Translations under genes and position numbers: made by a program | Virus record (IMG/VR): IMGVR_UViG_2778261274_000003 | Source of the DNA: a virus | Taxonomy: Duplodnaviria > Heunggongvirae > Uroviricota > Caudoviricetes | Strand: one strand, 5' to 3' | Length of the DNA: 4,539 bases | Shown here: piece after piece, positions 1 to 4,539 of the stretch | How the letters are laid out: each line of letters starts with the position of its first letter | Position numbering within the stretch: position 1 is the first letter of the stretch | The notes under the pieces: generated by a model | Told to the model about the DNA's origin: nothing | Databases searched by the model: none | Seen by the model: only the letters and a program-made list of their open reading frames with translations

Positions 1-56
1 ACACTGAATCTCCCGTCCAAAAGCGCAAATCATGCCATGCAGGCCAGAAACGGCCA

Positions 57-82
57 TTATTTAAAACCTCGGTTTACAGGAA
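57..82. repeat. 26-bp serine-invertase crossover site (gix/cix/hix-like), left boundary of the invertible segment
   Basis: Sequence TTATTTAAAACC-TC-GGTTTACAGGAA is two imperfect inverted 12-bp half-sites around a 2-bp core (69-70). Its reverse-complement partner is at about 2736-2761, sharing the 12-bp block ACCTCGGTTTAC. It closely matches the Gin/Hin-family crossover-site consensus as I recall it. Confidence 0.8.
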
Positions 83-943
83 ACGGTAAACAGGGCTGGT
101 AACGCCGTGCAAAAAAATGGCGATACCTTGTCCGGTGGGCTTACTTTTGAAAATGACTCAATCCTTGCCTGGATTCGAAATACTGACTGGGCGAAGATTG
201 GATTTAAAAATGATGCCGATGGTGACACTGATTCATACATGTGGTTTGAAACAGGCGACAACGGCAATGAATATTTCAAATGGAGAAGCCGCCAGAGCAC
301 CACAACAAAAGACCTGATGACGCTGAAATGGGATGCACTAAATATTCTTGTTAATGCTGTCATTAATGGCAGTCTTGGAGTTGGTTCGACGAATGCGTTA
401 GGTGGTAGCTCTATTGTTCTTGGTGATAATGACACCGGATTTAAACAGAATGGAGACGGTATTCTGGATGTTTATGCTAATAGTCAGCGTGTATTCCGCT
501 TTCAGAATGGAGTGGCTATTGCTTTTAAAAATATTCAGGCCGGGGATGGTAAAAAATTCACGCTATCCAGCTCCAACAACTCCACAAAGAATGCAACGTT
601 TAATTTATGGGGTGCTTCAACCCGTCCAGTAGTTGCAGAGTTAGGCGATGAGGCAGGATGGCATTTCTATAGCCAGCGAAATACAGATAACTCGGTAATA
701 TTTTCTGTTAACGGTCAGATACAGCCCAGCAACTGGGGGAATTTTGATTCACGCTATGTAAAAGATGTTCGCCTGGGTACGCGTGTTGTTCAATTGATGG
801 CGCGTGGTGGTCGTTATGAAAAAGCCGGACACGCAATTACCGGATTAAGAATCATTGGTGAAGTAGATGGCGATGATGAAGCCATCTTCAGACCAATACA
901 AAAATACATCAATGGCACATGGTATAACGTCGCACAGGTGTAA
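71..943 (+). CDS. Silent alternative tail-fibre C-terminal cassette (receptor-binding region, P2 gpH-like); no start codon of its own
   Basis: Open frame from the crossover site to TAA at 941-943. An in-frame TAA at 62-64, inside the outer half-site, closes it upstream. It ends ...RPIQKYINGTWYNVAQV and is followed 3 nt later by a cognate Tfa gene. The ORF-track start at 107 is a GTG inside this frame and is probably not a real start. Confidence 0.8.
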   Translation, partial: GLQETVNRAGNAVQKNGDTLSGGLTFENDSILAWIRNTDWAKIGFKNDADGDTDSYMWFETGDNGNEYFKWRSRQSTTTKDLMTLKWDALNILVNAVINGSLGVGSTNALGGSSIVLGDNDTGFKQNGDGILDVYANSQRVFRFQNGVAIAFKNIQAGDGKKFTLSSSNNSTKNATFNLWGASTRPVVAELGDEAGWHFYSQRNTDNSVIFSVNGQIQPSNWGNFDSRYVKDVRLGTRVVQLMARGGRYEKAGHAITGLRIIGEVDGDDEAIFRPIQKYINGTWYNVAQV

Positions 944-946
944 ATT

Positions 947-1474
947 ATGCAGCATTTAAAAAATATTAAGTCCGGAAATCCAAAAACAAAAGAACAATAT
1001 CAGCTAACAAAGAATTTTGATGTTATCTGGTTATGGTCCGAAGACGGTAAAAACTGGTATGAGGAAGTAAATAACTTTCAGGACGACACCATAAAGATTG
1101 TATACGACGAAAATAATATTATTGTTGCCATAACCAAAGATGCCTCAACGCTTAATCCCGAAGGCTTTAGTGTCGTTGAGATTCCAGATATAACAGCCAA
1201 TCGTCGTGCCGATGATTCAGGGAAGTGGATGTTTAAGGACGGAACTGTGGTTAAGCGGATTTATACAGCAGACGAACAGCAACAACAGGCCGAATCACAA
1301 AAGGTCGCGTTGCTTTCTGAAGCTGAAAGCGTTATTCAGCCACTGGAACGCGCTGTCAGGCTGAATATGGCGACGGATGAGGAACGCACACGACTGGAGT
1401 CATGGGAACGCTACAGCGTTCTGGTCAGCCGTGTGGATACAGCAAATCCCGAATGGCCACAAAAGCCTGAGTAA
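947..1474 (+). CDS. Tail-fibre assembly chaperone (Tfa), 175 aa, P2 gpG / Mu U-like
   Basis: ATG at 947 with AGGTG about 8 nt upstream. The N-terminus [22 protein letters not shown]...DGKNWYEE is the conserved Tfa N-domain. The 175-aa length matches P2 gpG as I recall it. It sits directly after the fibre cassette stop. Confidence 0.85.
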
Positions 1475-1479
1475 AAATT

Positions 1480-1499
1480 AAGGCCCGATATCGGGCCTT
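1480..1499. terminator. Bidirectional intrinsic terminator (20-bp perfect palindrome) between the convergent Tfa genes
   Basis: AAGGCCCGATATCGGGCCTT is a perfect palindrome with a GC-rich 6-bp stem. T-rich tracts follow on both strands (TTCTCTCATTC on plus, TTAATTTTTAC on minus). It lies in the 28-bp gap between the stops at 1474 and 1503. Confidence 0.6.
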
Positions 1500-1502
1500 C
1501 TC

Positions 1503-2036
1503 TCATTCTGGTTGTTCGGGAAACGTTACTGGCAGGCTGGAGGTGTCTGTAGATTCGACTTTCTGCGCAAAGAGCATCCACTCGGTTAATTTCTGCTTAT
1601 TCTCGTCGGAAATGATGCCCAGCCGTAGCTGTGAGTCCCATAGCTGGGTTTTATCCCTGACAAGTTGCAACAGGCTTTGCTTTTCATTTTCCGCTTGTTG
1701 TCTCTGCTCTTCCTCGGTATAAGTTCGCTTTATCACTACGCCATCTTTGAACATCCATTTCCCCGAAATATCAGCCCGGCGATTTGCTGTAATATCAGGT
1801 AATTCAACGACGCTTGCGCCTTCCGGATTAATTGCTGAAACATCCTTTTCAATACAAATAATAACGCCGTTATGGTCATAGACCATTTTCAAAGTGTCTG
1901 GCTGGAAATTCTTTTGTTCCTCATACCAGTTTTTTCCATCATCTGAATAAAGCCATTTGATGTTAAATTGCTTTGTTAGCTGGTATTGCTCTTTTGTTTT
2001 AGGGTTGCCAGCAGTAATGTTTTTTAAGTGCATCAT
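1503..2036 (-). CDS. Tail-fibre assembly chaperone (Tfa), 176-177 aa, cognate to the currently expressed fibre C-terminus
   Basis: ATG-ATG start at 2036/2033 with GGGGAG about 10 nt upstream, 2 nt after the fibre stop. The N-terminus [22 protein letters not shown]...DGKNWYEE is paralogous to the plus-strand Tfa, and the C-terminal third diverges. Confidence 0.85.
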   Translation of the reverse strand: MMHLKNITAGNPKTKEQYQLTKQFNIKWLYSDDGKNWYEEQKNFQPDTLKMVYDHNGVIICIEKDVSAINPEGASVVELPDITANRRADISGKWMFKDGVVIKRTYTEEEQRQQAENEKQSLLQLVRDKTQLWDSQLRLGIISDENKQKLTEWMLFAQKVESTDTSSLPVTFPEQPE

Positions 2037-2038
2037 CG

Positions 2039-3877
2039 TTAAATACTCCCCGCGTTATACCACGTCCCATTAATGCAATACTGAATTGGCCTTGCCTGTG
2101 TTGTATCAATTAATTCATCACGGTTTCCGTTAACTGAACCCGTAACGACATAACCTGACCTGTCAGACCAGCCGGGACCATTCCATGTCTGAACAGATGA
2201 CAGACCGCCAAGGCGAATACCTGTAATAAACCTTGAGTTACATTCTGCCTGCGTATATGCACCAACATCTCCCGCTGAAGGTTTTCGTGTCGTGGTATAG
2301 AAATCTGACCAACCTAATTCAAACCCATAACCATCACGAGCCGACCTGTAGGAAATGCCACCATTTTTATAATTCACACGGAATTGTACGGCAGGACAGC
2401 TACCAGCATTTATATTAAAGTGAAGAATTAATACAGATGCACCACCAATCAGGGCGTTATATGCACCACTATCCCAATTCCATCCAACGGATGTATCACC
2501 ATTAACAGTATTACCTGTTTGTCGGAGTGCAAATGCATTGACATTTTTGGCACTAATTGAAATATCGCTAGAACCATCAAAACCAACTCCAGCAATTTTT
2601 CGTGCTGTTTTCAGCTTTGTTGCAGTAGCGGCATTGCCGGACAGTTCCCCAGAAAGGCCACCGCTGAATGTTTGTCGATTGGTCCAGGTATTCGCTGTAC
2701 TGAGTAACGGTATTTTCTCCCCGCTTGTGCCGAGTTCTCGTAAACCGAGGTATTCGATAACGGCGGCAACGGTCGATTTCGCAAGAATATCCCGCCCGAC
2801 TTTTGTCAGAGTTGCCAGGCTGGCGACATCATTCCCCGTAAAATACGGAAACCTGTCTGCCGCAGTAGCAAGCCCGGCCAGCGCCGTCAGGGTGGCATCT
2901 TTCGGTTGCTTACCCGCAAGCGCGTTAGTCATGGTGGTCGCAAAATTCGGGTCGTTGCCCAGCGCCGCAGCCAGCTCGTTCAGCGTGTTCAGTGCATCAG
3001 GTGACGAATCTACAAGGGCGGCAATCGCAGCCATAACGAAAGCCGTGCTTGCGATTTGGGTATTATTCGTTCCCTGTCGCGCAGTTGGTGTTGTTGGCGT
3101 TCCGGTCAGCGCCGGGCTGTTTAATGGGGCTTTCTTATTTGTTTCATCCATTACTGCCTTAACCGCTTTCGATGTCGCGGCCAGTGTTTCAGACGTGCTG
3201 TTGGTGGCACTACTGAGCTGGACAATCCCTTTTTGTGCCGTCGTGGCGTCCTGAGCGGTATATTTTGCGTTAGCAAGATCATACGCGGCCTTTACCGCTT
3301 TTGGTGTTGCGGCGAGCGTTTCAGAGGTGCTGTTGGTGGCACTACTGAGCTGGACAAGACCTTTTCGCGCTGTAGTGGCGTCCTGTGCGGTATATTTCCC
3401 GTTAGCAAGGTCATAGGCTGCCTTGACCGCTTTCGGCGTTGCGGCCAGTGCTTCAGACGTGCTGTTGGTGGCGCTACTGAGTTGAACAAAGCCTTTTGCG
3501 GTCAGCGAGGCGTCCGGGTGACGTCGTGACTGTTCATGTTCTTTCAGTTTGTCATTCACGTAATCCACTGTGGCCATAACCATGGTGTTATCCACGGTAA
3601 GCGCCACGGTGGCAGTGCTGGATACGGTCAGAATGGTGCGAAATGTTTGTGCACGTCCGGATCCTTCGGCAACGGCTGGCTTGTAACTTTCGGCAGTATT
3701 GCCCACCGCGATCAAATCGCCGTGCTCATCAAATACACCAATTTCCCGGATCCAGAATCCGCCCGTTTCAGGAGGAATAACCAGCTCCGCAATAATGCGG
3801 TTCTGATGTGTTGCGTCCAGGATGACGCGATTAACAGTATGTCGCCACACCTCATGCACCAGACGGGTCTGCTTCAC
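2039..3877 (-). CDS. Tail-fibre protein, 612 aa as currently assembled (constant N-terminal shaft plus invertible C-terminal receptor-binding domain); apparently 5'-truncated
   Basis: Long ORF with a 132-bp tandem repeat region in the shaft. The crossover site is embedded in frame (…AAVIEYLGLRELGTSGEK…). The C-terminal domain contains GELSGNAATATKLKTARK and ends RPIQYCINGTWYNAGSI, typical of lambda Stf / Mu S / P2 H fibres. The start is GTG with no recognisable Shine-Dalgarno, and an in-frame stop lies 5 codons upstream. Confidence 0.85.
   Translation of the reverse strand: MKQTRLVHEVWRHTVNRVILDATHQNRIIAELVIPPETGGFWIREIGVFDEHGDLIAVGNTAESYKPAVAEGSGRAQTFRTILTVSSTATVALTVDNTMVMATVDYVNDKLKEHEQSRRHPDASLTAKGFVQLSSATNSTSEALAATPKAVKAAYDLANGKYTAQDATTARKGLVQLSSATNSTSETLAATPKAVKAAYDLANAKYTAQDATTAQKGIVQLSSATNSTSETLAATSKAVKAVMDETNKKAPLNSPALTGTPTTPTARQGTNNTQIASTAFVMAAIAALVDSSPDALNTLNELAAALGNDPNFATTMTNALAGKQPKDATLTALAGLATAADRFPYFTGNDVASLATLTKVGRDILAKSTVAAVIEYLGLRELGTSGEKIPLLSTANTWTNRQTFSGGLSGELSGNAATATKLKTARKIAGVGFDGSSDISISAKNVNAFALRQTGNTVNGDTSVGWNWDSGAYNALIGGASVLILHFNINAGSCPAVQFRVNYKNGGISYRSARDGYGFELGWSDFYTTTRKPSAGDVGAYTQAECNSRFITGIRLGGLSSVQTWNGPGWSDRSGYVVTGSVNGNRDELIDTTQARPIQYCINGTWYNAGSI
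2736..2761. repeat. 26-bp serine-invertase crossover site (gix/cix/hix-like), right boundary, embedded in the fibre coding sequence
   Basis: Plus strand TTCTCGTAAACC-GA-GGTATTCGATAA; its reverse complement TTATCGAATACC-TC-GGTTTACGAGAA is the inverted partner of 57-82 with the same TC core. It encodes VIEYLGLRE. Coordinates are +/-1 bp because of the frame discrepancy at line boundary 2700/2701. Confidence 0.8.
3152..3496 (-). repeat. In-frame tandem array (about 2.6 copies) of a 132-bp / 44-aa repeat in the fibre shaft
   Basis: Protein repeats KG[FLI]VQLSSATNSTSE[AT]LAATPKAVKAAYDLAN[GA]KYTAQDATTA[RQ]. The DNA block TCAGA(C/G)GTGCTGTTGGTGGC(A/G)CTACTGAG recurs at plus-strand 3189, 3321 and 3453, exactly 132 bp apart. 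Confidence 0.85.
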
Positions 3878-3885
3878 GCAGGGAA

Positions 3886-4206
3886 TCAGTTTTCAGCATG
3901 GCTGTTGTCCTCGTTGTTCAGTCGTTGCAGTCTGCGCTGCTCCAGTAATTCAATGGCCCGTTTATCCGCGTTACAGGTTTCCAGTGCATCCAGAAGGCGG
4001 TCGCCCCATATACCGAGATTTCCCCATGTGGGAGTATCAGGGAAGGGGGGAGGCATTACCGGTATGGTCAGCGTCTGCGGTATAAGCCGGACTGACGGCG
4101 CTGGCCGTGGCGCGTTCTGCGTGCCTGCGCAACCTGTCAGTAAAACGAGCGTCAGGCAAAGCGTGGGCGCATTCATCTTTTGCAATATCGTTGCGTAGCT
4201 GTTCAC
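3886..4206 (-). CDS. o-spanin (Rz1-like outer-membrane lipoprotein), overlapping the i-spanin gene
   Basis: Lipobox L-T-G-C after a hydrophobic stretch (…TLCLTLVLLTGCAG), then a proline-rich segment (APRPAPSVRLIPQTLTIPVMPPPFPDTPT). It starts inside the i-spanin gene in another frame and runs 150 nt past its stop. The GTG at 4206 has GGAGAG upstream; an alternative ATG is at 4176. Confidence 0.65.
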   Translation of the reverse strand: MNSYATILQKMNAPTLCLTLVLLTGCAGTQNAPRPAPSVRLIPQTLTIPVMPPPFPDTPTWGNLGIWGDRLLDALETCNADKRAIELLEQRRLQRLNNEDNSHAEN

Positions 4207-4444
4207 GTCTGGCCTCTCCGTCCTGATTGCGTTGCTGATTTTCCGCGCGGAGTTGTGCCAGCACCTGCTGCATATCCTGTACCCCGGCGCTGATGATATT
4301 CAGGGTGTCGACGGTACTTTTCAGGGTGCTGGCCTGCGCTTCGTTTCTGGCGTTCTCCCGGCCCAGTGACCACGACAGACGCATGGATGCTCCCCAGGCG
4401 GCAATCAGAAGAAAAGCGACGCCCAGCGTGGGCCAGAGCTTCAT
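4037..4444 (-). CDS. i-spanin (Rz-like inner-membrane spanin), about 135 aa
   Basis: Start at ATG 4444 gives an N-terminal transmembrane segment MKLWPTLGVAFLLIAAWGASM followed by charged, coiled-coil-like sequence. The ATG overlaps the upstream gene stop (ATGA), with GGAG about 11 nt upstream. The ORF-track extension to 4513 overlaps the upstream gene frame and reads as non-protein-like. Confidence 0.6.
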   Translation of the reverse strand: MKLWPTLGVAFLLIAAWGASMRLSWSLGRENARNEAQASTLKSTVDTLNIISAGVQDMQQVLAQLRAENQQRNQDGEARREQLRNDIAKDECAHALPDARFTDRLRRHAERATASAVSPAYTADADHTGNASPLP

Positions 4445-4539
4445 GCCGGATAAACTCCGTGCGGTAACTGAAAATGCGGTCCGTCTTTCAGGGTCTTCCA
4501 GTCGCCGCCCCATTCCACCGGAATATTCAGTTCCCGGCT
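4441..4539 (-). CDS. 3' end of the upstream lysis gene, probably an endolysin (partial; continues beyond the right edge)
   Basis: Open frame ending …SRELNIPVEWGGDWKTLKDGPHFQLPHGVYPA* with its TGA overlapping the i-spanin ATG. Its position immediately before the spanin pair is where endolysins sit. The WGGDW…D.PHFQ tail recalls LAS/M15-type peptidase endolysins, but that is from memory only. Confidence 0.4.
   Translation of the reverse strand, partial: SRELNIPVEWGGDWKTLKDGPHFQLPHGVYPA

Follow-up and report, generated by a model that had tools for sequence, protein, structure and literature searches.

At its left edge the window, by which we mean the whole 4,539-nt stretch of DNA analysed, begins with the first two bases of the GTG start codon of a Gin-like serine invertase gene (1..2, minus strand), the rest of which lies beyond that edge. 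Over positions 1-3874 the window matched P2-like prophages, from E. coli O145:H28 among other strains, at 99.9% identity, and in one of these relatives (L001, 99.9% identical over the same positions) a minus-strand CDS annotated as "recombinase family protein" (L001 3403-4002) has its start at window 2..0. The invertase of these relatives is a 199-aa minus-strand product annotated as recombinase family protein or DNA invertase. The L001 protein, encoded off-window, combines the Pfam domains Resolvase (E = 1.4e-50) and HTH_7, a C-terminal HTH, retains the Ser9 nucleophile and an intact MLIGYVRVSTNDQ motif, and aligned over residues 1-183 to structures of Mu Gin (4m6f, E = 3e-100; also 3uj3), as befits a serine invertase. 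Between the 3' end of this gene and the end of the upstream tail gene, a hairpin with a 12-bp stem and A and T runs was observed (L001 3384-3413); it looks terminator-like in both directions and sets the invertase gene apart from the upstream tail operon.

The invertase start is separated by a 54-nt leader (3..56, minus strand), with a Shine-Dalgarno-like GGGAGAT at 8-14 and the motif TGGCATGAT at 29-37, from an invertase-proximal 26-bp crossover site of the gixR/bixR type (57..82; outer half 57-68, core TC 69-70, inner half 71-82). Site positions 6-8 form a TAA codon (62..64, plus strand) in the frame of the cassette that follows. That cassette, of the Mu S / P1 S type (65..943, plus strand; Pfam Gp34_trimer), is open from just after the TAA to a stop codon at 941-943 and is the silent C-terminal fibre cassette; its identity is 46% to Mu S and 84-88% to parts of P1 S, and in genomes carrying the inverted form it constitutes the C-terminus of a 716-aa annotated tail fibre. 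Behind it lies a silent tail-fibre assembly chaperone gene of the Mu U type (947..1474, plus strand; Pfam Caudo_TAP), 97% identical to Mu U.

A second cassette-chaperone pair faces the first from the minus strand. It comprises a chaperone gene of the Mu U' type (1503..2036; Pfam Caudo_TAP), 97% identical to Mu U', and the joined variable C-terminal cassette of the Mu S' type (2039..2746), which is part of an ORF at 2039..3877 and shares 89% identity with Mu S'v over its C-terminal 165 aa. Mid-segment, between the convergent chaperone genes, a GC-rich hairpin (1480..1499; -18.6 kcal/mol, z-score -4.1) has a perfect 8-bp stem, AAGGCCCG ATAT CGGGCCTT, and probably terminates transcription in both directions. 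The distal 26-bp site (2735..2760; core GA 2747-2748), whose outer half is that of Shigella boydii bixL, lies within the fibre ORF, and beyond it follows the constant part of a P2 H-like fibre (2749..3877, minus strand), truncated at its 5' end. This part matched Pfam Phage_tail_fib, at profile positions 47-149 of 150 only, and three copies of Phage_fiber_2, which coincide with three tandem 132-nt repeats at 3156-3551, two of them 86% and 64% identical to the first copy. The intact fibre homologue in L001 measures 661 aa.

The truncation marks a deletion between 3874 and 3875, with GCTT microhomology at the junction (3871..3874), by which 3,567 nt present in L001 (7875-11441) are missing. Lost with them are the tail and baseplate genes R, S, V, W, J and I, together with about 49 first codons of the fibre, which now abuts, out of frame, the first codons of gene R, near lysC and lysB. 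The flank outside the switch (3875..4539, minus strand) holds the gene R remnant (ATG 3899-3897), a LysC/Rz1-like gene (3886-4083), a LysB/DUF2570 gene (4037-4444) and the 3' end of an M15 endolysin gene, all on the minus strand. The deletion junction was absent from complete E. coli RefSeq genomes, an exact 41-nt search for it in IMG/VR returned no match, and no called gene on record corresponded to the 612-aa truncated fibre, with either a V or an M start. Because of the 3,567-nt deletion, this copy has no native fibre start and the prophage cannot assemble a tail; intact members of the family are found in L001 to L005. Since the prophage is without its baseplate genes and the 5' end of its fibre gene, the switch in this genome appears, on the sequence, to be a relic, that is, a decayed member of the family.

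Crossover sites, reading frames and natural isomers

Exact re-reading of the window gave TTATTTAAAACC TC GGTTTACAGGAA for the left site (57-82) and, as the reverse complement, TTATCGAATACC TC GGTTTACGAGAA for the right site (2735-2760). The two are in inverted orientation and identical at 21 of 26 positions, and they have in common a 12-bp block, ACCTCGGTTTAC, at 66-77 and 2740-2751, the second copy being inverted and no third one present. With TC at 69-70 and GA at 2747-2748, the core dinucleotide reads TC in both sites in the same sense, as the preliminary description had stated. Such an identical, non-palindromic core is a property of the Din family; in the Hin system, a core mismatch blocks ligation, and the cores must pair after strand exchange (PMC4513852). 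A scan of the window with the palindromic Din consensus TTCNNNNAAACNNANGTTTNNNNGAA, allowing up to 3 mismatches, returned two matches, which are the two sites, against 0.14 expected by chance from 200 shuffles; relative to TTC-N4-AAAC..GTTT-N4-GAA, each site has 1-3 mismatches.

We then aligned both sites with published gix, bix, hix, cix, pix and mix sequences, taken from Table 3 of PMC3241671. Read from the inner to the outer half, the left site is TTCCTGTAAACC GA GGTTTTAAATAA and the right site TTCTCGTAAACC GA GGTATTCGATAA. In the same table, gix is TTCCTGTAAACC GA GGTTTTGGATAA, and the sites of S. boydii PinB are TTCCTGTAAACC GA GGTATTCGATAA (bixL) and TTCCTGTAAACC GA GGTTTTAGATAA (bixR), and the core of hix, cix, pix and mix is AA (PMC3241671). 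The left site differs from bixR by 1 nt and from gix by 2 nt. The alignment with gix, cix, pix and hix proposed in the preliminary description therefore places the window sites in the gix/bix type, with core GA and not AA, and both can be classed from their sequence as Din-family invertase sites in inverted orientation.

The two sites differ in their relation to coding sequence. The right one is translated as part of the fibre, as had been described, with VIEYLGLRE read from minus-strand positions 2761-2735 of the 612-aa fibre ORF (3877..2039). The same description had placed both sites inside coding sequence, and this holds for the right site, in the expressed fibre ORF, but not for the left, which falls within the leader separating the silent cassette from the invertase start. 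The TAA at 62-64, within the outer half-site, shares its frame with the silent cassette 65..943, the frame continuing as N-L-G-L-Q-E-T-V... for 291 codons to its end at 943; both the position and the frame assigned to this stop proved exact, and it does close the frame in front of the parked cassette.

Inverting positions 69..2748 in silico gave one and the same product whether or not the core was flipped along. The inverted fibre is a 667-aa ORF reading ...VIEYLGLQETVNRAGNAVQKNGD..., and the translation across the fibre junction, which had been put forward as a means of refutation, contained neither a frameshift nor a stop. At the left junction the TAA now stands before the other cassette (*NLGLRELGTSGEK...), and it is likewise kept in both natural orientations, so the earlier statement that whichever cassette is parked is closed upstream was borne out for this locus. 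With the crossover inside a Leu codon (CTC), the fibre is in frame in both orientations, giving products of 612 and 667 aa here and of 661 and 716 aa in intact relatives, with no stop at the junction. The locus thereby has the makings of a Mu-type G segment, namely a constant N-terminal part, two opposed cassette-chaperone pairs and in-frame fusion both ways.

Both orientations occur in nature. The orientation of the window (1-3874) was found in 43 complete E. coli genomes, and the form inverted in silico was matched in 63, at 100% cover and up to 99.9% identity. Once strain 32F4 is flipped at 69..2748, no mismatch to strain 33E remains in the 5,874 nt compared, the two chromosomes measuring 5,288,962 and 5,288,964 bp, respectively. 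The hybrid sites in inverted genomes are exactly those predicted, TTATTTAAAACCTCGGTTTACGAGAA and TTATCGAATACCTCGGTTTACAGGAA, and L003 and L004 provide natural examples of these recombinant sites. Breakpoints in the natural isomers are confined to the 12-bp block 66-77, as in inversion of the Din family; they place the exchange within this block and are consistent with cleavage at the TC, which we infer. For e14, Mu and the P2-like prophages of EPEC, sequencing has revealed inversion directly (PMC4272514).

Imperfect inverted repeats were also observed inside the segment, at 947-1303 versus 1680-2036 (70% complementary) and at 890-929 versus 2053-2092 (78%). One could suppose that the matching crossover sites arose by chance, or that the flips stem from homologous recombination between the opposed chaperone genes, which do form a 357-nt inverted repeat of 70% complementarity. 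The natural isomers rule this out as the cause of inversion, with a residual probability that is practically negligible: their breakpoints fall within a 12-bp block of the 26-bp sites, outside the chaperone genes, the match of the sites to the Din consensus is far above chance, and a Gin orthologue adjoins the segment. Site-specific inversion at 57-82 and 2735-2760 is accordingly the reading we retain, and the inverted-repeat chaperone genes, together with the extreme C-termini of the cassettes, are paralogous modules rather than crossover sites.

RefSeq annotation follows the state of the switch. In either state the joined fibre is called at full length, as a CDS of 661 or 716 aa, and the parked cassette appears as "hypothetical protein" or "phage tail fiber protein" from a GTG at 107 (window 107-943) in one orientation and as a pseudogene "missing N-terminus" in the other. 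Calling a "hypothetical protein" from this GTG treats the parked C-terminal cassette as an independent gene, which is an artefact of ORF calling.

By the mechanism we propose, dimers of the Gin-like invertase would bind the two 26-bp sites at 57-82 and 2735-2760 and, with Fis occupying an enhancer within the 5' portion of the invertase gene, would make staggered cuts at the central dinucleotide. One pair of half-sites would then rotate by 180 degrees, and religation would leave the 2.68-kb segment flipped. The cut is predicted to fall within the Leu codon (C|TC) of the shared N/Y-L-G-L motif, and because it lies inside a codon common to both cassettes, the constant fibre part could join either C-terminal receptor-binding cassette in frame, each cassette being followed by its own chaperone. 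A Fis-dependent enhancer outside the window is suggested by analogy, because the 5' part of the invertase gene is 97-100% identical to that of Mu gin (nt 1-100 of the L001 gene 100%, nt 101-200 97%) and because the P1 annotation places an enhancer at nt 19-90 of cin.

The in-frame stop and the silence of the parked cassette

The preliminary description had gone further and ascribed the silence of the spare cassette to the stop in the outer half-site. We collected 164 loci with relatives of the invertase, plus Mu (L165) and P1 (L166). A Din-type site lay 45-116 nt upstream of the invertase start in 120 loci, mostly at 53-55 nt, and in 111 of the 120 proximal sites the frame N-[L/V]-G-L through the core ran on into the segment for at least 80 codons without a stop. 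Given these 111 surveyed sites, the reading frame through the crossover is universal.

The stop in front of that frame is a different matter. Of 29 distinct proximal outer half-sites, types that are phylogenetically not fully independent, 5 had an in-frame TAA at site positions 6-8. Half-sites with NAA at this codon (n = 20) had A in 9, T in 5, G in 4 and C in 2 as their first base, with no excess of T over an equal share. Stops inside the site were found in 8 of 36 cases in each of the other two frames versus 5 of 36 in the cassette frame, and the median distance to the first in-frame stop was 17 codons versus 10.5 and 19 in the other frames. A stop conserved or enriched in the proximal outer half-site was thus not found across the family. 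Within the close clade (invertase 96-99% identical) the TAA occurred in all but one of the surveyed loci. The phage contig L087, with a 99%-identical invertase, has CAA instead; the TAA is absent from the proximal sites of Mu, e14 and L087. In Mu the codon is CAA, and the cassette frame is open for 107 codons upstream, an in-frame ATG included; in e14 the first in-frame stop lies 21 codons upstream, with none in the proximal site.

Expressed sites behave otherwise. Across the distal sites (n = 53), the codon equivalent to TAA was never a stop but GAA, GAT, AAT, AAA, GCA, ACA or CAA, and it is GAA in the expressed site of the window. Site positions 6-7 fall in the degenerate NNNN of the Din half-site consensus (table of PMC3241671). 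The TAA at 62-64 sits in the degenerate part of a non-coding proximal half-site, where a stop is tolerated; at the coding site it is forbidden.

With the TAA in 5 of 29 half-site types, and with CAA and 107 open codons in Mu, the claim that the outer half-site stop silences the spare cassette found no support. Silencing would have to be independent of a stop codon, since the frame is closed in some lineages and open for more than 100 codons in Mu. The simplest reading is disconnection: facing away from the promoter, and without a start codon or the constant N-terminal part of the fibre, the other cassette-chaperone pair would for that reason be silent. For Mu, expression of S/U versus S'/U' depends on orientation, according to the passage of PMC3575834 that cites Grundy & Howe 1984. 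Two further observations concern the same region of Mu. The parked S' frame (L165 4441-4860, minus strand) continues upstream of gix, antisense to both the gin leader and the 5' coding region, and the GeneMark CDS Mup52 (MPCVPKSTIIQNLGLQE...) starts outside the G segment, at an in-frame ATG.

The TAA might nevertheless be a selected translational insulator that stops ribosomes started in the leader, for example at ATG 32-34, and so keeps the spare cassette silent. In either orientation it keeps its place and its frame; the in-frame ATG lies 10 codons upstream of it (MPCRPETAII*); the equivalent ORF of Mu, uninterrupted, is called as a gene by GeneMark; and five distinct half-site types share the TAA, among them some from Min-type and from distant Citrobacter and Rosenbergiella loci. 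The survey speaks against selection, however, from the share of T among NAA half-sites, through the stops in the other two frames and the similar median distances, to Mu, e14, L087 and the many other loci without the in-site stop. ATG 32-34, moreover, is preceded by no Shine-Dalgarno sequence, and no promoter-like site faces the cassette. We regard an insulator of this kind as distinctly improbable. The TAA is better judged, on the comparative evidence, an incidental and at most mildly useful feature than a silencing mechanism, although a small selective or weakly insulating benefit is conceivable.

Another possibility is that the proximal outer half-site has been shaped by expression or autoregulation of the invertase, with a promoter whose -35 element abuts the site and with the TAA as a by-product. 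The leader offers some grounds for it. A spacing of 53-55 nt between site and invertase start occurs in 70 distinct contexts from L001-L165, of Gin, Pin and Min type and with 72-99% invertase identity, beside a second class at 63-65 nt; the conserved spacing may reflect promoter layout or the geometry of site and enhancer. In most of these 70 contexts, across Gin-, Pin- and Min-type loci, the motif TGGCAT[GCT]AT is conserved, a candidate extended -10 element of the invertase promoter (TGn + CATGAT); at 21-29 nt from the site, it would put the -35 element at the boundary of site and leader. Yet site positions 6-7 vary among relatives with the same leader (TAA, CAA, AAA), and a sigma-70 consensus scan called no promoter within the leader of the invertase and none directed at the parked cassette. 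A by-product of promoter architecture is, in our estimate, an unlikely origin of the TAA.

Three smaller results concern invertase leaders. The complement of the motif gives ATG 32-34 in the frame of the parked cassette in the window, Mu and e14. A sigma-54 reading of TGGCAT...GC was rejected, its GG-GC spacing being 8 nt and not 10. The P1 cin leader, checked for the TGGCAT motif, proved not to be homologous, P1 having a different architecture.

Very unlikely, too, is the remaining proposal, by which either the TAA is a selected insulator that kills the ORF starting in the leader motif, or the relic is kept by the host for a cellular role of the fibre fragment. For e14, a StfE2 chimera that arises by PinQ inversion of the P segment blocks T2 adsorption (PMC12529663).

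Interpretation and comparison with known systems

We therefore consider it very probable that the window represents the invertible tail-fibre segment of a P2-like E. coli prophage (Peduoviridae, Xuanwuvirus-type) with a Gin-like switch, in which the TAA of the proximal site is incidental, and that this copy is a relic. By gene order and sites, the locus is identifiable as a homologue of the Mu G segment and of the Shigella boydii B segment. The system as such is already known, being an invertible tail-fibre switch of the Gin/PinB type, and the comparative stop survey is a small clarification of a textbook system. For annotation, the region should be described as one invertible tail-fibre locus with two sites, two cassette-chaperone pairs and an adjoining Gin-like invertase, and in genome comparisons either orientation is to be expected.

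The P1 Cin/cix system resembles the locus in its crossover within an L-G-L codon frame (the expressed site reads IQYLGLRE), in U and U' chaperones that are 96% identical and in common parts of S. It differs in its AA/TT core and its non-homologous leader. In P1, cin is transcribed into cixL, so that the cin TAA lies in the outer half of cixL, in a frame other than that of Sv' (L166 3690-3760); the first in-frame stop before Sv' is 12 codons upstream. The e14 Pin/pix and p15B Min/mix systems likewise have Din-family sites, an N-V-G-L frame through the core and a 54-nt spacing to the invertase. Their core is AA, in contrast to the window, and the proximal site of e14 has no in-frame stop, whereas some Min-type sites carry a TAA (GAC TAA) as the window does.

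The closest known site sequences are those of the Shigella boydii B segment (PinB, D00660), which was compared by its sites alone. The outer half of bixL, GGTATTCGATAA, is that of the right site, with an inner half of TTCCTG... in bixL versus TTCTCG... here, and bixR, read from outer to inner as TTATCTAAAACC, has a TAA at the same in-frame position as the window (PMC3241671).

Mu shares an invertase about 99% identical over the catalytic domain, with a C-terminus that diverges after about residue 120, the GA/TC core, the inner half-site TTCCTGTAAACC, the order cassette, chaperone, inverted chaperone, inverted cassette, with U and U' 97% identical, and a leader of 54 nt between site and invertase. 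The G segment of D108 is 91% identical in DNA to window 57-2498. The sites of Mu are perfectly identical, whereas those of the window differ at 5 of 26 positions, and Mu has CAA where the window has TAA, leaving its cassette frame open for 107 codons upstream. The constant part is a P2 H-type fibre of about 425 aa in the window and the Sc part of about 170 aa in Mu, and the host element is a P2-like prophage here but a transposable phage in the case of Mu.

The Escherichia phages 503458, P88 and P884B11 (Xuanwuvirus, Peduoviridae) are 94.5-98.7% identical to the window. Although they are intact and the window copy has a 3.6-kb deletion, they share with it the phage type, the gene order, the DNA invertase and the two fibre-chaperone pairs.
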